Source: Escherichia coli | GTDB taxonomy: Bacteria > Pseudomonadota > Gammaproteobacteria > Enterobacterales > Enterobacteriaceae | Assembly: GCF_002854065.1 (NCBI RefSeq) | Contig: NZ_CP024147.1 | Length of the DNA: 64,000 nt | Direction: 5' to 3' (one strand) | Shown here: positions 9,882 to 32,390 of the stretch, piece after piece | Layout of the letters: each line of letters begins with the position of its first letter | How positions within the stretch are numbered: the first letter of the stretch is position 1 | Notes under the pieces: generated by a model | What the model was told of the DNA's origin: nothing | Seen by the model: the letters and a program-made list of their open reading frames with translations, nothing else | Databases searched by the model: none | Program-made: the position numbers and the translations under genes

Positions 9882-10171
9882 ATAAATCTCCATTTATCAT
9901 TTATGTCGTAAATATGTAATCCATGCAAAATACGTCATTTAAAGCTGGTGTTATCATAATTGGGAAATTGCGACTTTAATAAGTGGAAGTGTGAGCAGAA
10001 CGATCCATTTTATTAGGCATTTGTGCTGAAGAGGGAAAATTACGGCATATTTATTACTATCATCAATAATGTGACCTGACTTATATTTTTATTATTTATA
10101 TTACTTTCAGCTTTCACTTCGACAAGAAGTACGCACAATGATTAATTAGATGAATGATGCGGAGTGTAACC

Positions 10172-10879
10172 ATGAAACCCGTCGTGCTGGTGGTGGATGA
10201 TGACACGGCTATCTGCGCACTGTTGCAGGACGTGTTAAGTGAACATGTCTTTACGGTTTCAGTCTGCCATACCGGACAGGAGGCCATATTGCGTATTGAG
10301 GGCGATCCTGACATTGCGCTGGTGGTGCTGGATATGATGCTACCCGATACCAACGGCCTGAGGGTATTGCAGCAAATCCAGAAACTGCGTCCGACATTGC
10401 CGGTGGTGATGTTGACCGGCATGGGCAGTGAGTCTGATGTGGTGGTCGGGCTGGAAATGGGCGCGGATGATTACATCTGCAAACCGTTCACCCCGCGGGT
10501 GGTGGTCGCACGACTGAAAGCGGTGTTGCGACGGGTTGGTGCGCTGGCGGTTAATGACGAGAAAAGCGCCGGGCTGTCATTCAATGGCTGGTATCTCGAT
10601 ACCATGCGCTGCCAGTTGCACAATCCGCTTCAGCAACATGTCGAGTTAACTCAGGGCGAATATGGCTTGTTACTGGCTCTGGCGCAAAACGCGCGTCGGG
10701 TATTGAGCCGCGAGCAGTTGCTGGCGTTCACCCACAGCGACAGCGTGGAGGTGTTTGATCGCACCATCGACGTATTAATCATGCGCTTACGACGCAAAAT
10801 CGAACTCAACCCGCATCAGCCGATGTTGATTAAAACTCTGCGCGGTCTGGGGTATGTCTTCGCTGCCGACGTGCATTAA
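10172..10879 (+). CDS. OmpR/PhoB-family response regulator (receiver plus winged-helix)
   Basis: MKPVVLVVDDD...ALVVLDMMLPDTNG receiver motifs, C-terminal LRGLGYVF wing; GGAG 7 nt upstream of ATG at 10172 (track ORF begins at 10154). Confidence 0.85.
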   Translation: MKPVVLVVDDDTAICALLQDVLSEHVFTVSVCHTGQEAILRIEGDPDIALVVLDMMLPDTNGLRVLQQIQKLRPTLPVVMLTGMGSESDVVVGLEMGADDYICKPFTPRVVVARLKAVLRRVGALAVNDEKSAGLSFNGWYLDTMRCQLHNPLQQHVELTQGEYGLLLALAQNARRVLSREQLLAFTHSDSVEVFDRTIDVLIMRLRRKIELNPHQPMLIKTLRGLGYVFAADVH

Positions 10880-20553: not shown

Positions 20554-21312
20554 TCACGCCACCCCAATCTCCATCCCATCAAACCCGGCTTCAAACCCCG
20601 GCGGCAGCGCGTTTTCTATCAGCCACGCATCAAACTGGTGGCTGATATGGGTCAGAACCACGCGCGGCGAGCGGATAACCTGATTCAGCGCAAGCACGGT
20701 ATTTAAATCACAGTGATTACGCGGTGCATCCTCGCGCGGCGGGTGGCTGCAATCAATCACTATTACCTGCGGCTGATTATTGAGTAAAAATTTCAGCGTT
20801 TTTTCCGGCAAGCCTGCGGTGTCAGACAGCCACGCCACCCGGCTGTGTGCTGTTTCCAGCAGATAACCGAAGGTCAGTTTTGAGTGGTTGAGCGGCAGCG
20901 GCGTGACCTGCAATCCCTGCAAATCAAACACTACAAACGGTTCCACCGTGTGGCTAAAATCAAGCAGGCCCGGATGTTTAAACAGATCGTCGCAGCCCTG
21001 TTCATCCGGTGGGCCGTAAACCGGGATCGGATCGCCCACGCCCCAGCGCAGCGGGAATAGCCCCTGCACGTGATCCATATGGTAGTGCGTCAGCAAAAAC
21101 TGCTGGAACGAACCGGGCGACCAGCGATCGGCGAGATCGTGCAGCCCGGCGTCGATCAGGGTGATTGCGTCGTTAAACTTTACTACGCCGCTGCACGGCT
21201 GGCGGCGATACTGCGGCGAGCGCCGCGCTCTGGCGCAGGCCGCACACTCGCAGCCCCATGCCGGAACGCCCTGTGCGCCGCCGGTGCCGGTGAGCGTGAG
21301 GGTCAGGTTCAT
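20554..21312 (-). CDS. phnP: Phosphoribosyl 1,2-cyclic phosphate phosphodiesterase (MBL fold)
   Basis: 252 aa, HYHMDH motif; last gene of the phn operon. Confidence 0.9.
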
Positions 21313-21313
21313 G

Positions 21314-21748
21314 TTACAGCGCCTTCGTGAAGCGGAAGTGGCTCTGCTCGTAGCCTTCGCGAAGATAGAAACGGTGTGCGTCGTGGCGCTTCACGTTGGT
21401 CGAAAGCTCGGTCATTTCGGCCCCGGCCTGGCGGGCTTCTTCTTCTGCCCACGCCAGTAACTTGCTACCGACGTTCAGGCCGCGCGCCTGCGGCATCACC
21501 ACCAGTTCCTGAATTTCACCGATCCAGTTGACATGATGCAGATGAAACTGCAAATGCAGGCCGATCATGCCGACAACTTCGCCATCCAGCAGCGCCAAAT
21601 GGTAGCGCATGTTCGGGTCACGTAGGTTAGCGTTAAAGCCCACGCGAAACGCGTGATGGTCAAACTCCGCCTGTTTTAGCTCACAAATCAGCGCGTAAAC
21701 CGCGTCGGTGTCGTACTGCGTGGCCGGGCGAAGCTCACAAGCAGGCAT
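21314..21748 (-). CDS. phnO: Aminoalkylphosphonate N-acetyltransferase (GNAT)
   Basis: 144 aa, GNAT motifs; operon position. Confidence 0.88.
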
Positions 21749-22292
21749 GGTGTTTCTCCTTCTGATGGATCAGCGTCAGCAGCGTGTCGACCGACTGGCG
21801 CAGGCTGCCGTCATTATTGAGCGTATGGCAATCCTGTGGAGTATAGCGGGCGGCGCGCACCAGCCGGGCGTTAATTTCACTGGCGTTTTCGCGGCCACGG
21901 TTTTCCAGGCGCTGGCGCAGGATCTCCGGCGAAACCTGCAAGCAAATGGGCAGCAGCGCCGATTGATAGCGCGCCCGCGCCTGCGGCAAATGGGCGCGTG
22001 AGCCGTTGACCAGCACGTCGAATCCGGCGTGCAGCCAGAGGTCGATCTCGACGCCGACGCCATAATACAGACCGTTGGCGTGCCAGCTTAAGGCCAGCAG
22101 ATTTTGCCCCGCGCGGGTAAAAAACTCCTGCTCACTCAGGGCGATATGGTTTTCGCTTCCAGCGCTGGCATCGCGCGTGATGTAGCGATGCGCCACCAGT
22201 AACTGAGTTTGTTCCCGCAGGCGGAGTTCCGCCAGCAGGCTATCTTTCCCGGAGCCGGACGGCCCCATTAACCAAATCAGTTTTCCCGTCAT
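21735..22292 (-). CDS. phnN: Ribose 1,5-bisphosphate phosphokinase
   Basis: 185 aa, P-loop [10 protein letters not shown]; overlaps phnO by 14 nt. Confidence 0.88.
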
Positions 22293-23428
22293 CAGAACAC
22301 CCTTTTACCCTGACGCCAGACGTGGTCGATATGAATGTGGTTGCCCTTGCGATGCGCCAGCACCAGGTCGGCGCGTTTGCCCTCGCCAATCACCCCGCGA
22401 TCCTGGAGATTGAGCGCCTGCGCCGGATTTTTGGTCACCAGCTTCACCGCCTGCGGCAGCGTAAAGCGGTTGCTCTCGTCATCGGCGACGCGGAACGCCG
22501 CATCCAGCAGGCTGGCGGGGTAGTAGTCGGAAGAGAGGATATCCAGCAGGCCAAGCTGCGCCAGTTCACTGGCCGCCACGTTGCCGGAGTGCGAACCGCC
22601 ACGCACGATATTTGGCGCGCCCATCAGCACGTTCATGCCATGCTTGCGCGAGGCTTCCGCCGCTTCGAACGTAGTGGGAAATTCGGCGATCACGCTGCCA
22701 AGCTGGTGGGATTCGGCAACATGGGCGTGGGTGGCGTCATCGTGGCTGGCGAGCGCAATGTGTCGCGCACGGCACATTGCGGCGATGGATTCGCGATTTG
22801 GCTGCGACCAGCGTGCAGCAAGCGCCAGCTGTTCCTCTTCATACTGCTGCATCTGCGCGTCGGTGAGCGAGTATTTGCCCTGATAATATTCGCGATACTT
22901 CTCGCGGTTGGCGAACTGGCGCTGGCCCGGTGAGTGGTCCATCAGCGACACCAGCGTCACCGGCTCGCGCTGCACCAGTTTTTCAAACAGCGGCAGCGTG
23001 GTGTGATGCGGCAGTTCGCAGCGCAGATGCAGACGGTGCTCGGCGCGGTTGACGCCGCGTTTCTGCGTCTCTTCGATGGCGTTGATCATCTTCTCCAGAT
23101 TCTCCAGCCGATCGCCGCCGTCGCGCACGTCGCCAATTGCCACGGCGTCCAGTACGGTGGTGATGCCGCTCGCCACCATCAGCGCGTCGTGGCTGCTCAT
23201 CGCCGAGTGGGCAGGCCAGTCAACTTTCGGGCGCGGGGTGAAGAATTTATCCAGATTATCGGTATGCAGCTCAATCAGCCCCGGCAGCAGCCAGCCGCCT
23301 TCGCCGTCCATCGCCTCCGGTAGGCGGCTCTGGCTTTCGGCAAAGGCGCGGATTTCGCCGTCCTGCATCTCCAGCGAACCGTTTACCACTTCGTTTTCCA
23401 GCACCAGTTTGACGTTATTGATAATCAT
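22292..23428 (-). CDS. phnM: Amidohydrolase-family C-P lyase pathway diphosphatase
   Basis: 378 aa; operon position. Confidence 0.88.
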
Positions 23429-24105
23429 GCAGAGGCTCCCATTGGGTGCAGGCGGTCGGCGACGTCATTGCGTACGGCTTCGTCATGGAAAATGCCGACG
23501 ATGGCCGCGCCACGGGCTTTTGCTTCGCGGATCAGTTCCACTACGGCGGCGCTGTTTTTAGCGTCCAGCGAGGCGGTAGGTTCGTCGAGCAGCAGAATGG
23601 GGTAGTCGACGATAAAGCCGCGGGCGATGTTGACGCGCTGCTGTTCGCCGCCGGAGAAGGTCGATGGCGCCAGGTGCCACAGGCGTTCCGGCACGTTCAG
23701 GCGGGTGAGCAGACGCGCGGCTTTAGCGGCGCAGGCTTCACGCGGTACGCCGGTATCGAGCAGCGGCTGCATCACCACTTCCAGTGCTGAAATACGCGGG
23801 ATGACGCGCAGAAACTGGCTCACCCAGCCGACGGTGGTTTTGCGGATCTCCACCACTTTGCGCGCTGGCGCGGTGACCAGGTCAACCCATTCGTCGCCGT
23901 GTTTGATCTGGATTTGCCCTTCGTCGGGCAGATAGTTGGCGTACAGCGAGCGCAGCAGGGTTGATTTGCCGCTGCCGGAGTGGCCGTGGAGCACCACGCA
24001 TTCGCCCGCGTTGACGGTGAGTGAGGCGCGTTGTAAGACGGGCAGGCGCACGCCGTTTTGCTGATGCAGGATGAAGGTTTTACTGACGTTTTGTACGTTA
24101 ATCAT
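23425..24105 (-). CDS. phnL: ABC-type ATPase component of C-P lyase system (226 aa from [11 protein letters not shown])
   Basis: Walker [26 protein letters not shown]; track ORF extends further upstream through the REP element and is trimmed to the conserved start. Confidence 0.85.
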
Positions 24106-24124
24106 TTTTCGCCTCGTGGTTCGG

Positions 24125-24212
<88 letters not shown>

Positions 24213-24215
24213 GGC

Positions 24216-24974
24216 TCAATTCTGCAAAACCGATGACACCAGCAGCTGTGTATACGGATGGTGCGGGTCGTCGAGCACGCGGTCGGTTAACCCACTCTCC
24301 ACCACCTGCCCCTGCTTCATCACCAGCAAACGGTCCGCCAGCAGGCGGGCGACGCCTAAATCGTGGGTGACAATCACTACCGCGAGGTTCAGCTCCACCA
24401 CCAGGCCGCGCAGCAGGTCGAGCAGGCGGGCCTGCACCGACACATCCAGCCCGCCGGTTGGTTCGTCCATAAACACCAGCTTCGGATGCGTCACCAGGTT
24501 GCGGGCAATCTGCAAACGCTGCTGCATGCCGCCGGAAAAGGTGGTCGGCAGGTCGTCGATCCGGTTGGCGGGAATTTCCACCTCTTCCAGCCACTTCTGC
24601 GCGGTGGCGCGAATGTCGCCGTAATGACGCGCCCCGGTCGCCATCAGCCGCTCGCCGATATTGCCGCCTGCCGACACCTGGCGGCGCAGGCCGTCGAGCG
24701 GATGCTGATGCACTACGCCCCATTCGGTGCGCAGCAGGCGACGGCGGTCGGCCTCGCTCATGCCATAGAGGGAACGGTTTTCATAGTGAATCTCCCCCTG
24801 CTGCGGCGTCAGACGCGCGGAAATTGATTTCAGCAGCGTGGTCTTCCCGGAGCCGGATTCCCCGACAATGCCCAGCACTTCCCCCGGCCATAAATCAAAA
24901 GAGACATCGCTAAAGCCTTTGCCCGGCGCGTAAAGGTGGGTCAGGTTATTGACCGAAAGTAACGGTTGATTCAT
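24216..24974 (-). CDS. phnK: ABC-type ATPase component of C-P lyase system (252 aa from MNQPLLSV)
   Basis: Walker [29 protein letters not shown]. Confidence 0.88.
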
Positions 24975-25816
24975 TGGCTTTTTGCCTCGCTCTGTTGGCG
25001 GCAATAATCGGTATCGGAGCAGACAAACATGCGGTTTCCGGCGTCATCCAGCACCACTTCGTCGAGATAGCTGTGGGTCGATCCGCAGATGGCGCATGGC
25101 TCATCCCACTGCTGAACGGTGAACGGGTAATCGTCGAAATCGAGGCTTTCCACGCGGGTAAACGGCGGCACCGCATAAATACGCTTCTCGCGCCCCGCGC
25201 CGAACAGTTGCAGGGCGGGCATCATGTCCATTTTCGGGTTATCGAATTTCGGGATCGGCGACGGGTCCATCACGTAGCGCCCATTTACCTTCACCGGATA
25301 GGCGTAGGTGGTGGCGATATGACCGAAGCGGGCGATATCTTCATACAGCTTCACCTGCATCACGCCGTACTCCTCCAGCGCGTGCATGGTGCGGGTTTCC
25401 GTTTCGCGCGGCTCGATAAAGCGCAGTGGTTCGGGGATCGGCACCTGGAAGATAATTATCTGATCTTCGGTCAGCGGCGTTTCCGGGATGCGGTGACGCG
25501 TCTGGATGACCGTGGCATCGTCCGTACGCTCGGTGGTGTTTACCCCGGTCACGCGCTTAAAGAAGTTGCGAATCGATACGGCGTTGGTGGTGTCATCCGC
25601 GCCCTGGTCAATCACCTTCAGCACGTCGCTTTCGCCAATCACGCTGGCGGTGAGCTGGATACCACCGGTTCCCCAGCCGTACGGCATTGGCATCTCGCGC
25701 CCGCCAAACGGCACCTGATAACCGGGGATCGCCACCGCTTTTAAGATGGCGCGGCGGATCATGCGTTTGGTCTGCTCGTCGAGGTAGGCAAAGTTGTAGC
25801 CGCTCAGATTAGCCAT
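24971..25816 (-). CDS. phnJ: C-P lyase catalytic subunit (281 aa from MANLSGYNFAYLDE)
   Basis: Conserved Cys cluster near C-terminus (CAICGS...CSDTDYC); start trimmed from the longer track ORF. Confidence 0.88.
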   Translation of the reverse strand: MANLSGYNFAYLDEQTKRMIRRAILKAVAIPGYQVPFGGREMPMPYGWGTGGIQLTASVIGESDVLKVIDQGADDTTNAVSIRNFFKRVTGVNTTERTDDATVIQTRHRIPETPLTEDQIIIFQVPIPEPLRFIEPRETETRTMHALEEYGVMQVKLYEDIARFGHIATTYAYPVKVNGRYVMDPSPIPKFDNPKMDMMPALQLFGAGREKRIYAVPPFTRVESLDFDDYPFTVQQWDEPCAICGSTHSYLDEVVLDDAGNRMFVCSDTDYCRQQSEAKSQ

Positions 25817-26873
25817 GGTTCTGCTCCTGTTGCAGACGTTTGAGTAGCTCCAGTTCGGCCTGGAAATCGACGTAGTGCGGGAGTTTGAGGTGTGAGACAA
25901 AGCCTGCGGCTTCGACGTTGTCGGCATGTGCCAGCACGAACTCTTCATCCTGCGCCGGGCCTGTCGCGTGCTCGCCGTACTCCGGGGCTTGCAGAGCACG
26001 GTCAACCAGCGCCATCGCCATCGCTTTGCGCTCGCTCATGCCGAATACCAGCCCGTAGCCGCGCGTGAAGTGCGGCGGTTCATCTGGTGGGTCGATAAAA
26101 CCGTTGACCATTTCACACTCGGTCATCAGCAGTTCGCCGACGTTTACCGCAAATCCCAGCTCTTCTGGCACAATCGATACGTCGATATAGCCGCTGCGGA
26201 TCTCGCCTGCGAACGGGTGGTTGCGCCCGTAGCCGCGTTGGGTGGAGTAGGCCAGCGCCAGCAGATAGCCTTCGTCGCCGCGCATCAACTGCTGCAAACG
26301 GGAAGAACGTGAGCAGGGGTAAACCGGCGGCGTGCGGGTGATGTCATCCGGCTGTGCGCCGCTATCCTCTTCAAACTTCGCCAGCCCCTGACGCGCCAGC
26401 AGGCTGAAAACGTGCGGCGACGGCTGTTGTTCGCTGTCGGCGGTGGTCAGCGTCGGCGCTTCGCCGTTTGCCAGCAGGGTGAAATCGAGCAGGCGATGGG
26501 TGTAGTCGTAGGTTGGGCCAAGCAACTGGCCGCCGGGAATATCTTTATAAACCGCTGAAATACGCCGTTCGAGACGCATCTCCGTGGTGTCGAGCGGCTC
26601 GCTTACCGCGAGTTTCGCCAGCGTGGTGCGGTAGGCGCGCAGCAGGAAAATTGCTTCGACGTTATCGCCGCTGGCCTGTTTCAGCGCCAGCGCCGCCAGT
26701 TCGCGGTCGGCAATGCCGCCTTCGGTCATCACGCGATCCACCGCAAGATTAAGTTGCTGTTCAATCTGGGCGACGCTCAGTTCAGGCAAATCGGTATCGC
26801 CCCGGCGTCGGCTCTCTTGCAGGGCGTGGGCGGCATCGATCGCCTTCTCGCCCCCTTTCACGGCAACGTACAT
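25809..26873 (-). CDS. phnI: C-P lyase core complex subunit (354 aa from [13 protein letters not shown])
   Basis: Operon position and length; start trimmed from track ORF. Confidence 0.88.
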   Translation of the reverse strand: MYVAVKGGEKAIDAAHALQESRRRGDTDLPELSVAQIEQQLNLAVDRVMTEGGIADRELAALALKQASGDNVEAIFLLRAYRTTLAKLAVSEPLDTTEMRLERRISAVYKDIPGGQLLGPTYDYTHRLLDFTLLANGEAPTLTTADSEQQPSPHVFSLLARQGLAKFEEDSGAQPDDITRTPPVYPCSRSSRLQQLMRGDEGYLLALAYSTQRGYGRNHPFAGEIRSGYIDVSIVPEELGFAVNVGELLMTECEMVNGFIDPPDEPPHFTRGYGLVFGMSERKAMAMALVDRALQAPEYGEHATGPAQDEEFVLAHADNVEAAGFVSHLKLPHYVDFQAELELLKRLQQEQNHG

Positions 26874-27457
26874 CAGCACACCTCCACATGAGTGGTTCGG
26901 GGGATAGCCAGCAGGCGCTCGCCGCAGGTCAGGATCAGGTCGATGCCGAGCGGGAACGGGTGCGGGCGCTCGGTGAGTTCGTGCAAAATGCACTCCGGCA
27001 GCTGCGGGGCGATCATTCGTTCTTCGGCAATGCCCGCGCCGGTGAGACGCAACATGCGCCCGCCGCTAAGGCTGGCGACCTGTAAAATCAGCGTTGCGCC
27101 CGCTTCCGGCGCAACGGCGGTGCCGGTGGAAAGGGCGTTAAGCTGTTCGCTGGAAATCGCCTCATCCGTTACCGCGAAGGTCGCCTGTTCCGGCTGGCTG
27201 ACCAGCGGCGCGTTGGTATGAAAACGCAGGCTCTGGCTGACGATATCGTTGCTTAATGGCGCGGCAAGCCACACCGGCGTGTCGTTATCGGCCAGCGTCA
27301 GCAGCACGCTGGTGGTGGCGATATTCAGCGGCTGCCAGCCGCGTTTGAGCTGATGCAGGGCGACAATCACGCCCGGCTCGCTCATGGCCTTTAACAGGCG
27401 ACGAAAACTGTGCTGGGCATCCTGCACGGGAAGAATAAAAGCGGTTTCCAGGGTCAT
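26873..27457 (-). CDS. phnH: C-P lyase core complex subunit
   Basis: 194 aa; operon position. Confidence 0.88.
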
Positions 27458-27906
27458 GCGTTGTCTCCGCGAACCATCGTAAAGAAGTCGACCCGGCTGG
27501 CGTTCACTTCGGCCTGGCGTGCGGCAATGCGTGCCATACGGTCAGCGTCCAGCGGGGCAATAAGGATTTCTGATAAGTTTTGAAAGTGGCGAGATTGCTG
27601 CATCAGCGCGTCAATCAGCGCGCAGCGTTCGGCGTGCTGTTTGTCGCGCCCTAGCACCCAGCTGTAGCCGAGCGTGCCGTCAGTCAGGCGTACGGCGGCG
27701 CGGGTGAGCGTGGCGTCGCCGGCAAAAAAGCGTTCGCCGGTGCCGCCCATCCGCGCCTGAATCTGTACCAGGCCAGTTTCAGCGGCGCGGATCACCTCAT
27801 AGTTGGCGGTGATGTTCAGCGCGTTCAGGCGGGCTGCCAGTTCTGCCGGTTGGCTGTGTGCCAGTACGGACATCCAGTGCTGGCGGGTCGCGGTATCTGC
27901 GTGCAT
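27454..27906 (-). CDS. phnG: C-P lyase core complex subunit
   Basis: 150 aa; operon position. Confidence 0.88.
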
Positions 27907-28632
27907 TCAGTGCTCCATAGTAAATTCAATCATGTCGGCGCGCGTCAGGCTGACGGAGTACTCCGCCGGGCTGCTTTCACCGTCACGGTGGTTAAGGGTG
28001 CGCACGCACAGCAGCGGCGACATATTCGGAATTTCAAGACGCTGGCACTCTTTGGCCTGGGCGCGGCGGGCGCTGATCCGCGTCTGGCTGCGGCGCAGCG
28101 CAATTCCGGTTTGCTCGCGCAGAAAATCGTGCAGCGAGCCGCTGTCGAAGCGTTGCAGCGTCGGCCAGAGGGTGAGATCCGCGAAGTAGTGGTCAATCAA
28201 ACAGAGCGCGACGCCGTTGACCCGGCGCAGGGTGCGCAGGTGGATAACGTTCTCACCCCCGGCGATCCCCAGCGCATCCGCCACGTGACCGGAAGCCGGG
28301 CGCAGCACCGACAGCAGTTTTTCGCTGGTGGGATGGCTGCCCTGGTCCAGCAGGTTCTGGCTAAAACGCGCCTGGGCGTTGAGCGGGTAATCGAACGGGC
28401 GCATCAGCACCAGCACGCCGACGCCCTGACGGCGCTGTACCCAGCCTTTTTCCACCAGTTGGTCGATGGCGCGGCGCAGGGTGTGGCGATTTACCTCAAA
28501 GCGCGCCGCCAGCTGCTGCTCGGCGGGAAGATAGTCGCCGCAGCGGTAGTGTTGACGCAGCTCCTGCTCAAGTTTTGCGGCTATCTCCTGATAGCGTGTT
28601 GGGTAGCTGGTCGGATGTGTAGACAAGTGCAT
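27907..28632 (-). CDS. phnF: GntR-family transcriptional regulator of phn operon (241 aa from MHLSTHPTSY)
   Basis: N-terminal winged HTH, UTRA-like C-terminal domain. Confidence 0.85.
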   Translation of the reverse strand: MHLSTHPTSYPTRYQEIAAKLEQELRQHYRCGDYLPAEQQLAARFEVNRHTLRRAIDQLVEKGWVQRRQGVGVLVLMRPFDYPLNAQARFSQNLLDQGSHPTSEKLLSVLRPASGHVADALGIAGGENVIHLRTLRRVNGVALCLIDHYFADLTLWPTLQRFDSGSLHDFLREQTGIALRRSQTRISARRAQAKECQRLEIPNMSPLLCVRTLNHRDGESSPAEYSVSLTRADMIEFTMEH

Positions 28633-28652
28633 AGATATCAATGCCTCGCTTA

Positions 28653-29432
28653 TCAGATAAAGTGCTTACGCAACCGTTGAGAGAGGAAATCCAGCAGGCT
28701 GACCGTGACGATAATCAGCACCATCAGGGCGCAGGTTTGCTGGAACTGGAAACCGCGAATCGCTTCCCACAGGGTGACGCCGATCCCGCCTGCGCCGACC
28801 ATGCCGACGACGGTCGCCGAGCGGACGTTGGATTCGAAACGATAGAGGGAGTAGGAGATCAGCAGCGGCATCACCTGTGGCAGCACGCCGTAGAGGATCT
28901 CTTCGAGCTTGTTGGCACCGGTGGCGCGAATGCGTTCCACCGGGCCGGGTTCAATCGCTTCCACCGCTTCGGAAAGCAGCTTGGAGAGCACGCCGGTGGT
29001 GTGGATAAACAGCGCCAGCACGCCAGCGAATGGGCCGAGGCCGACGGCGACCACGAACAGCATGGCGAAGACCATTTCGTTAATGGCGCGGCAGGCATCC
29101 ATCAGGCGGCGAACGGGCTGGTAAACCCACCACGGCACCAGGTTTTCGGCGCTCATCAGGCCGAAGGGGATGGAGAGAACCACCGCCAGCGCCGTGCCCC
29201 AGACGGCGATTTGCAGCGTGACGGCCATTTCGGTGAGGTAATCCTGCCACTGGCTGAAATCGGGCGGGAAGAAGTCGGCGGCGAACGTCGCCATGTTGCC
29301 GCCGTCTTTAATCAGCGTGAGCGGGGCCATTTCCGCGCCCTGCCACGAGACAACCAGCACGGCGAGAACAATGGCCCAGCTCAGAAGCGAGAACCAGCTG
29401 CGCTTGGGTGGGGCGATGGTGATGGTTTGCAT
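28653..29432 (-). CDS. phnE: Phosphonate ABC transporter permease, intact 259-aa reading frame
   Basis: Uninterrupted ORF from [12 protein letters not shown] to stop; multiple TM helices. Confidence 0.88.
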
Positions 29433-29455
29433 GTTTGGCTCCGGTCTGTAGGCCG

Positions 29456-29545
29456 GATAAGGTGCTTGCACCGCATCCGGCATCAACGCCTGCACATTGT
29501 CGGATGCGACGCCGGGGCGTCTTATCCGACCTACGATTTACTGCA
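29456..29545. repeat. REP/BIME elements between phnE and phnD
   Basis: gtaggccggataaggtgcttgcaccgcatccggca and gtcggatgcgacgccggggcgtcttatccgacctacg. Confidence 0.85.
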
Positions 29546-30554
29546 CCGCTTTACTCACCGAACTCATCGCGCTTAGCGCGTTGTTCAGGCGGTCCAGGTC
29601 ATCCAGCTGCGCCTGAATGGCGGTGGTTTTCGCGAGCTTGTCCTGCTCATTCAGCCCTTTATTGCCTTTCACGCCCTGCATCTCTTTAAACAGCGCGAGC
29701 TGGCGAATCGGCACCAGTTGCAGGTCGCTGGAGGCGCGGAACGGCGCCCAGCCCAGGCGTTCCAGCACCGCTTTTTCTTCCGGCGTTTTGCCGTAGTTCA
29801 TAAAGAAGTCGTAGATCTTGTCTTTGGTGGTTTCGGAAAGATTCTTGCGCCAGACGATCGGATCGCCTGGGATCAGCGGCGACTTCCAGATCACTTTCAG
29901 TTCTTTCAACTTCTCCGGCGCGGAGGTTTTCAGCTTGTCGAGGTTCTCGGTGTTGTTAGTGGCAACATCCACCTGCTTGTTGGCGACGGCCAGCGCGTTG
30001 GTTTCATGCCCGGCGTTGACGGTGCGCTTGAAGTCGCTGGCGGAGATATTGTTTTTGGCGAAGACGTAGTAGCCGGGGACGAGGAAGCCAGAGGTGGAGT
30101 TAGGATCGCCATTGCCGAAGGTGAGATCTTTCCGCTTCGCCAGCAGATCGCTCAGGTTGTTGATCGGGCTGTCTTTGTTGACGATTAACACGCTCCAGTA
30201 ACCCGGCGATCCATCCGCCGCGACGGTCTGAGCGAAGACCTGACCGTTGGCGCGATCCACTGCTTCCATCGCCGACAGGTTGCCGTACCAGGCGATATCC
30301 ACTTTGTTGAAACGCATTCCCTGGATAATGCCCGCATAGTCCGGGGCAAAGAAGGCGTTGACCTTCACGCCCAGCTTCTTCTCCATATCCTGTAAAAACG
30401 GCGTCCATTGCGGTTTCAGGTTTTGCTGTGATTCCGTTGAAATAATGCCGAAATTCAGCGCCTTTTCCTGCTCTTCGGCGTGTGCCGGGCTTAACAGGGT
30501 GCTGAGGCTGAACATGCTGGTGAAGGCCAGCGAGGCAATTATCTTAGCGTTCAT
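29538..30554 (-). CDS. phnD: Phosphonate ABC transporter periplasmic binding protein
   Basis: 338 aa with signal peptide; operon position. Confidence 0.9.
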   Translation of the reverse strand: MNAKIIASLAFTSMFSLSTLLSPAHAEEQEKALNFGIISTESQQNLKPQWTPFLQDMEKKLGVKVNAFFAPDYAGIIQGMRFNKVDIAWYGNLSAMEAVDRANGQVFAQTVAADGSPGYWSVLIVNKDSPINNLSDLLAKRKDLTFGNGDPNSTSGFLVPGYYVFAKNNISASDFKRTVNAGHETNALAVANKQVDVATNNTENLDKLKTSAPEKLKELKVIWKSPLIPGDPIVWRKNLSETTKDKIYDFFMNYGKTPEEKAVLERLGWAPFRASSDLQLVPIRQLALFKEMQGVKGNKGLNEQDKLAKTTAIQAQLDDLDRLNNALSAMSSVSKAVQ

Positions 30555-30578
30555 TCGTTTTCCTCAATGATGGGGATG

Positions 30579-31367
30579 TCAGGCAGCTTTCGCGTTCTCT
30601 TCGACGCGGTTAATGCTGCGGTAGAGATGGTCAAAACGTTCGTTATCAAACTGTTGGCTGCTACCGTCGTAGAAGACGTGTCCCTGACGCAGGGCGACGA
30701 TGCGTTCGCAGTAGCGCAGGGCGTAATCCACCTGATGCAGCGTGACGACCACGGTGATGCCGTCGTTCTGATTGATGTCGCGCAGGGTGTCCATCACGAT
30801 GCGCGCCGATTCCGGGTCCAGCGAGGCGATCGGTTCGTCGGCGAGAATCACCTTCGCCTGCTGCATCAGCGCGCGGGCAATCGCTACACGCTGTTGCTGG
30901 CCGCCGGAGAGGGTGGAAACGCGCTGATGGGCAAAATGCACCATGCCAACGCGGGTCAGCGCCTGTAACGCGCGCTGTTTCTGCTCGCGGGTGAACCAAC
31001 TAAAACAGGTGCGCCAGAACGGCGTGCTGCCGAGCGCCCCAATCAGCACGTTCTCCAGTACGCTCAGGCGATTCACCAGGTTGAATTGTTGGAAGATGTA
31101 GCCGGTGTTGGCGCGGCTTTTGCGGATATCGCGGGCCAGGCGGCCTTCGCGCTGGACAGTGCGGCCCAGCAGCTCGATATGGCTACCGGCGGATTTATCG
31201 CCGGTAATCAAACCGCTTAAATGACGTAAAAGGGTGGATTTGCCGGAACCGGACGGCCCAAGCAGAGCCACCATTTCACCATGATGGATATTCAGATCAA
31301 CCGCGTGCAGCGCCTGATGCTGATTGAAGGTTTTGCTCAGTTGTTCGACGCGGATAATCGTTTGCAT
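30579..31367 (-). CDS. phnC: Phosphonate ABC transporter ATPase
   Basis: Walker [29 protein letters not shown]. Confidence 0.9.
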
Positions 31368-31411
31368 GATGCAGCCTCCCTAAAAAAGTGGCTCCATCGT
31401 GGCGGATTATT

Positions 31412-31444
31412 GTGACGATTTGGTTAATTAAAAGTGACTAACAG
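31412..31444 (-). promoter_or_regulatory. Candidate Pho box (PhoB site) of the phnC promoter
   Basis: Minus strand reads CTGTTAGTCAC TTTTAATTAAC CAAATCGTCAC, 11-bp-phased CTGTnAn/TCAC repeats about 40-75 nt upstream of the phnC ATG. Confidence 0.45.
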
Positions 31445-31499
31445 ATGAAGAGTTAACGGGAATTCGATGACAGTGCGGGAGGGCGGGCCTCCCGGCGGA

Positions 31500-32006: not shown

Positions 32007-32390
<384 letters not shown>

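Follow-up and report, generated by a model that had tools for sequence, protein, structure and literature searches.

The window analysed here is a stretch of 64,000 nucleotides from Escherichia coli (contig NZ_CP024147.1 of assembly GCF_002854065.1), and the gene under study lies on its minus strand at 28653-29432. The gene is phnE, which codes for the membrane subunit (permease) of PhnCDE, an ABC importer for phosphonate/phosphate. Its open reading frame has 780 nt, that is 259 codons and a stop, with no internal stop codon. The ATG is at 29432-29430, and the TGA at 28655-28653 is directly followed by a second stop, TAA. A continuous frame of 259 codons had been read here from the letters alone; the coordinates of that reading are exact, and the strand, which it left unstated, is the minus strand. 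The NCBIfam equivalog TIGR01097 (phosphonate ABC transporter, permease protein PhnE) matches the product with 307.9 bits against its curated cutoff of 216.7, with residues 16-258 aligned to profile positions 8-251 of 252. The Pfam domain PF00528 (BPD_transp_1) matches with 89.9 bits (cutoff 26.4). An identical sequence is annotated as phnE by PGAP in two genomes in the 780-nt form (WP_032282051.1), and the length of 259 codons is that of the frame-repaired K-12 gene and of the PGAP calls in other strains. The AF2 model (pLDDT 83.9), together with the BPD_transp_1 domain, gives the type I permease fold, and its top Foldseek matches are all permeases of type I importers, with MetI as the best, followed by ArtQ, DppC, PstC/A and MalG. 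Nothing was found against the identification of 28653-29432 as phnE, and the reading frame is a genuine gene, not a chance one.

The spacer between phnD and phnE is filled by a REP/BIME element (29451-29531, plus strand; Rfam RF02564 naRNA4, 69.1 bits, gathering score 59.5). This element creates an in-frame GTG at 29495, and therefore some annotations start phnE upstream, as in the 839-nt pseudogene feature of K-12. We considered this GTG as the start of a 280-aa protein and rejected it: the extension is underlain by the REP/BIME, the TIGR01097 match becomes no better, and PGAP uses the 780-nt form. The protein of 259 aa is preferred because the GTG extension crosses the REP/BIME and because a Shine-Dalgarno-like GGAG, read from the sequence on the minus strand at 29439-29442, stands 6 nt upstream of the ATG. 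A plus-strand reading frame of 311 aa (28641-29576) lies over phnE; it matches no Pfam family and is taken as a shadow of the GC-rich gene. Further REP/BIME sequence occupies the gap between yjdN and yjdM at 32007-32386, with four tandem units of 100 bp (3.8 units by TRF), each matching Rfam naRNA4 (CssrE) at 107-109 bits. The copy number of these units varies within the clone, isolate 100416 being shorter by 200 bp, or two units. In the wider family, most of the distant PhnE cluster representatives (P0121-P0270) are fused double permeases, 510-600 aa long and carrying a pair of PhnE-like domains, and the single-domain type found in E. coli is a minority among them.

The genes phnC, phnD, phnE, phnF and phnG to phnP are contiguous at 20554-31367 on the minus strand and collinear with K-12, which is the genomic context that goes with TIGR01097. 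All 14 have the K-12 length and no stops. The ATPase subunit PhnC (262 aa, 30579-31367, minus strand) is intact and carries G127R relative to K-12. The periplasmic phosphonate-binding protein PhnD (338 aa, 29538-30554, minus strand) is intact with three residue differences. The 11 genes phnF to phnP, for the regulator and the C-P lyase pathway, occupy 20554-28632 on the same strand. The region upstream of phnC (31368-31450, minus strand) contains a Pho-box-like sequence, CTGTTAGTCAC...TCGTCAC (31412-31444), matching K-12, which would be the PhoB site reported by Makino and colleagues in 1991. Over the promoter region of phnC, 150 of 151 positions agree with K-12, and the single difference is further upstream than the Pho-box-like sequence. 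Comparison of the 14 phn genes and the phnC upstream region with K-12 gave no other lesion of the transporter or the operon in the window.

Aligned with phnE of K-12 MG1655, the window gene is 97.7% identical in DNA and differs by 18 SNPs and one indel, a unit of 8 bp. This indel lies in a slippage tract at nucleotide 406 of the reading frame. K-12 has three units at this point, GCTGGCGT-GCTGGCGT-GCTGGCGC, while the window has two in tandem, GCTGGCGT-GCTGGCGC (ORF nt 406-421, 29012-29027, minus strand); the general form of the unit is GCTGGCGY. With the extra GCTGGCGT the K-12 gene as it stands loses the PhnE frame after residue ~141, runs into a premature stop and ends before the EAA loop, and MG1655 phnE1 (b4583) is flagged as a pseudogene in RefSeq. 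Removal of 8 bp from the K-12 gene restores the protein of 259 aa, which is the same as window PhnE except for V21I and G167R. The defect of K-12 phnE has been known since 1991. Reversible ON/OFF switching of phnE is reported for K-12 by Iqbal and co-workers (2004), who reportedly regarded the OFF form as unique to K-12. The defect is confirmed by Stasi et al., who name the repeat unit GCTGGCGT (PMC6469041), and the same 8-bp deletion in K-12 phnE is described as high-frequency slippage between direct repeats by Moreau and Loiseau (PMC4759930). The sequence-only reading had stated that K-12 phnE is cryptic through an 8-bp duplication; both papers and the MG1655 alignment bear this out, and the alignment that it proposed places the duplication at ORF nt 406, with the 8-bp unit as the sole indel. 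A literature search on phase variation of phnE gave nothing relevant. The gene has the make-up of a contingency locus: a short tandem repeat lies inside the reading frame, its copy number sets the frame, and both alleles segregate in E. coli. Three GCTGGCGY copies near ORF nt 406 mark the cryptic K-12 type, and the window has two.

How the two alleles are distributed was counted by searching 5,426 complete genomes of E. coli with a 128-nt probe from K-12 that has the three-unit tract at its centre. The three-unit allele accounts for 1,009 of the 5,394 matching records (~19%; at least 95% identity). The other 4,385 records (~81%) match the probe at 80-95% identity and are assigned to the two-unit allele from sampled rows, where the matches spanned 120 nt, equal to an 8-nt gap. 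Among the three-unit records that were sampled are chicken, pig, donkey, human and river-water isolates. One of the field strains, T177A from a pig farm (L005, NZ_CM125447, 848-1635), has a 788-nt phnE that equals K-12 at every base, with three units, and PGAP calls it 'frameshifted'. The OFF allele with three units thus also occurs outside laboratory K-12, and the census argues against the view that it is unique to K-12. An intact phnE is known biology and is what most E. coli have. The window gene is like the functional phnE (phn(EcoB)-type) of E. coli B and of most natural isolates in its operon position, its length of 259 aa and its two-unit tract, and its DNA is 95-98% identical to that of ~5,390 E. 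coli genomes; it differs from these in that it carries G167R, which is present in 2 of 5,426 genomes, together with the benign V21I. Disruption at other points of the gene occurs as well. Strain 2014C-3011 (L006, NZ_CP027591, 879-1575) has a frameshifting deletion of 83 bp in phnE between direct repeats resembling CCCGTTCGC, which ends at the 8-bp tract. Among the E. coli homologues P0034-P0053 there are PhnE variants of 234 aa that lack the first half of the EAA loop through an in-frame gap of ~25 aa; P0046, which belongs to them, is found on 126 contigs.

The window comes from a non-K-12 E. coli. This is shown because its phn genes, all 14 of them, are 95.0-97.0% identical to K-12 in DNA and because a different sugar cluster stands at the als-rpiB site; the repeat number is the weakest reason. 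Between yjcS and yjdP, K-12 has alsK-alsE-alsC-alsA-alsB-alsR-rpiB. At the same position the window has an island (~10154-20060) with genes for a response regulator, a carbohydrate (sugar) kinase, a ketose-bisphosphate aldolase, a D-lyxose/D-mannose isomerase, a sugar ABC transporter, a hybrid sensor (histidine) kinase and an N-acetyltransferase, presumably the island to which the sequence-only reading had referred. That reading had placed the window outside the K-12 lineage on the strength of this island and the intact phnE. The placement agrees with the phn divergence and with the gene content at the alsRBACEK-rpiB position, and the island holds as a sign of it; the intactness of phnE is a poor sign, with ~81% of the records having two units and K-12 itself reverting readily. 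A K-12 derivative that returned to Phn+ by loss of one 8-bp unit would carry exactly two units, and such revertants arise readily (PMC6469041, PMC4759930). However, it would not explain the 18 further SNPs in phnE, the 95-97% identity over all phn genes or the different gene content at the als-rpiB position, and the genomes closest to it belong to field isolates of Gambian and Thai origin. The divergence already refutes this origin, and we give it practically no chance. The nearest genome is CUWW06 from wastewater in Thailand, 99.97% identical over 49 kb, and the next is 100416 from human stool in The Gambia, at 99.94%. No other genome exceeds 98.4% identity across the 19 kb around the operon.

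Residue 167 of window PhnE shows an unusual substitution. Codon 167 (28932-28934, minus strand) is CGC for Arg, in place of the GGC for Gly seen in K-12 and in almost every E. coli. Residues 166-173, E-R-I-R-A-T-G-A, align with E-A-S-R-A-M-G-A of the EAA motif in MetI, and on the alignment to the solved MetI and ArtQ residue 167 is placed at EAA position 2. The EAA loop, residues 166-185 (28878-28937, minus strand), is the predicted docking site of the PhnC ATPase by the same alignment and the AF2 model. In this model, a short helix 162-170, a loop 171-174 with Gly172 and a second helix from residue 175 form the EAA helix-loop-helix. Compared with the pattern E-A-A-x3-G-x9-I-x-L-P, Glu166, Gly172 and Leu184-Pro185 are present and Arg at position 2 deviates, which leaves a motif that can be recognised but differs at a single conserved position. 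MetI of the methionine importer MetNI (PDB entries 3DHW and 3TUI) has the same type I fold (Foldseek E 9e-7, TM 0.66/0.78) and an EAA loop that can be aligned with that of PhnE, and it works as a homodimer with two ATPase subunits. However, it is ~20% identical, serves another substrate and binding protein, and has Ala at EAA position 2 rather than Arg.

Position 167 is Gly in all of 100 PhnE homologues (72-99% identity). In 245 PhnE-family domains, taken from 150 proteins that each represent a 50%-identity cluster, the residue is Ala in 166, Gly in 55, Ser in 13, Leu in 3, Val in 3, Asn in 2, and Thr, Phe and Arg in one each. Ala, Gly and Ser thus make up 95%, with larger residues (L, V, N, T or F) in 11 domains. 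The lone Arg is a fragment whose alignment ends at this residue, so that none of the full-length domains has a charged residue here. Allele-specific 31-mers, designed so that every 28-nt seed spans the codon-167 SNP, found the Gly allele in at least 3,506 of the 5,426 E. coli genomes and the Arg allele in two, both of them clone-mates of the window. The other substitution, V21I, is taken as benign because Ile is found in 21 PhnE homologues. PhnC G127R was considered as a compensatory partner of PhnE R167 and rejected: its 30-mer occurs in at least 486 genomes including O157:H7, so that it is a common polymorphism, and it is unlinked to R167. By these counts G167R is private to this clone and is the sole feature of the window phnE that is not routine.

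The R167 allele occurs in at least three isolates, namely the Gambian stool isolate, the Thai wastewater isolate and the window, two of which retain the remainder of the operon intact. Over 49 kb, CUWW06 differs from the window by 10 bases and one 31-bp deletion, and five of these 11 differences fall inside the 11-kb phn operon. The deletion frameshifts phnD (window 30321-30351; L002, NZ_CP182139, 25908-28524), and phnF Q192* and PhnJ P217S accompany it (sites including window 28059 and 25168; L002, NZ_CP182139). All three are damaging, specific to CUWW06 and absent from the window. Isolate 100416 has PhnK D94N, and PGAP calls phnF to phnP intact there. The window has two private changes in the operon, both synonymous. 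The CUWW06 lesions fit relaxed selection on phn in this clone, with counts too small to carry weight, and the operon may be decaying here.

From the family and the literature, the working cycle can be outlined as follows. Transcription from the phnC promoter would depend on PhoB. PhnE would be the membrane permease of a PhnC2-PhnE2-PhnD ABC importer, in which PhnD would catch phosphonate (or phosphate) in the periplasm and dock on the PhnE homodimer. In each PhnE, the EAA coupling helix (~162-170) would sit in a cleft of a PhnC ATPase and relay its ATP-driven movement, so that alternating access would be driven by ATP and coupled through this helix. Slippage in replication at the GCTGGCGY tract is expected to set the state of the gene, with gain of a third unit turning it OFF and loss of this unit turning it ON. 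The arginine would be present on both coupling helices, because phnE is the sole permease gene of the operon and its product resembles the homodimeric MetI. We put at about 0.9 the probability that the window phnE is an ordinary two-unit ON allele of a non-K-12 E. coli, standing third in a complete, Pho-regulated operon of 14 genes, phnCDEFGHIJKLMNOP.

Whether such an ON allele makes a working permease depends on Arg167. It had been predicted from the sequence alone that the transporter is functional. Part of this stands, as phnC, phnD and phnE are of full length and the promoter region agrees with K-12; the prediction had overlooked G167R in the EAA helix. Closer alignment, in search of the disrupting lesion that the same reading had named as evidence against itself, gave no frameshift and no stop, and G167R is the only missense change of concern. 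It falls outside what that reading had in mind, because it is neither a disrupting frameshift nor a stop. PhnE function should still not be assumed, because this rare substitution is at a predicted contact site with the ATPase. Single EAA substitutions in other importers are reported to be often mild (Mourez and colleagues, 1997). The ATPase receives the EAA loops in a hydrophobic cleft, and when these loops are mutated in both MalF and MalG, maltose transport is lost and MalK is released (review, PMC6906923). For substitutions at EAA position 2 in particular, the literature search gave only general statements on EAA-loop mutants. That G167R substantially weakens the coupling of PhnE to PhnC would have roughly even odds, with a slight lean to the negative.

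Two readings of the residue have to be weighed. The transporter may be a fully functional wild type, in which G167R is neutral and growth on phosphonates is like that of E. coli B and most isolates. The three intact transporter genes and the K-12-like promoter region are consistent with this, and PGAP calls an ordinary PhnE with a TIGR01097 score far above the cutoff. In a few proteins of the family, position 167 tolerates L, V, N, T or F, and the R167 allele is found in isolates from two continents. However, an invariant Gly in the close homologues, a small residue in nearly all distant domains, a charged one in no full-length domain and the rarity of the Arg allele in complete genomes all argue against a neutral change, as does the position of residue 167 in the middle of the NBD-docking helix, by alignment and AF2. 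In a homodimer both coupling helices would be changed, a situation resembling the transport-dead paired EAA mutants of MalF and MalG (PMC6906923). Taken together, we give a fully functional transporter a little less than an even chance.

Conversely, the permease may be crippled, with G167R disrupting the docking or coupling of PhnC, the clone being Phn-negative or leaky by missense, and the operon at the start of decay. The conservation and rarity at position 167 are in line with this, together with the structural position of the residue and the role of the EAA loop (PMC6906923), and CUWW06 has since gained the phnD deletion, phnF Q192* and PhnJ P217S, with five of 11 differences in the operon. 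Yet all 14 phn genes are intact in 100416 and in the window, and the differences that fall in the operon do not make a statistically convincing cluster. At EAA position 2, Arg replaces neither the salt-bridging Glu nor the motif's invariant Gly, and its side chain could reach solvent. The larger residues in 11 of 245 domains and the persistence of R167 in at least three isolates also speak for tolerance, as does the mildness reported for single substitutions elsewhere. A crippled permease likewise comes out just under even odds on the sequence evidence. The fuller proposal is that G167R is a natural missense route by which PhnCDE is silenced or weakened, the 'intact' phnE thus being cryptic and the phnD, phnF and phnJ lesions of CUWW06 being follow-on decay; we consider this tentative and somewhat doubtful.

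For annotation, the two-unit ON allele has little significance, an in-frame phnE being the norm in E. coli. The intactness of phnE is unsuitable as a lineage marker, because the OFF allele is present in ~19% of complete genomes, some of them from field isolates, and because the switch is reversible. Predictions of phosphonate growth and of Pi uptake by PhnCDE are uncertain for this clone, because a rare radical substitution lies in the predicted ATPase-docking helix; an open reading frame is not equal to a working protein. If the proposal for G167R is true, missense would be a third natural route of phnE silencing in E. coli, beside the 8-bp slippage and deletions.
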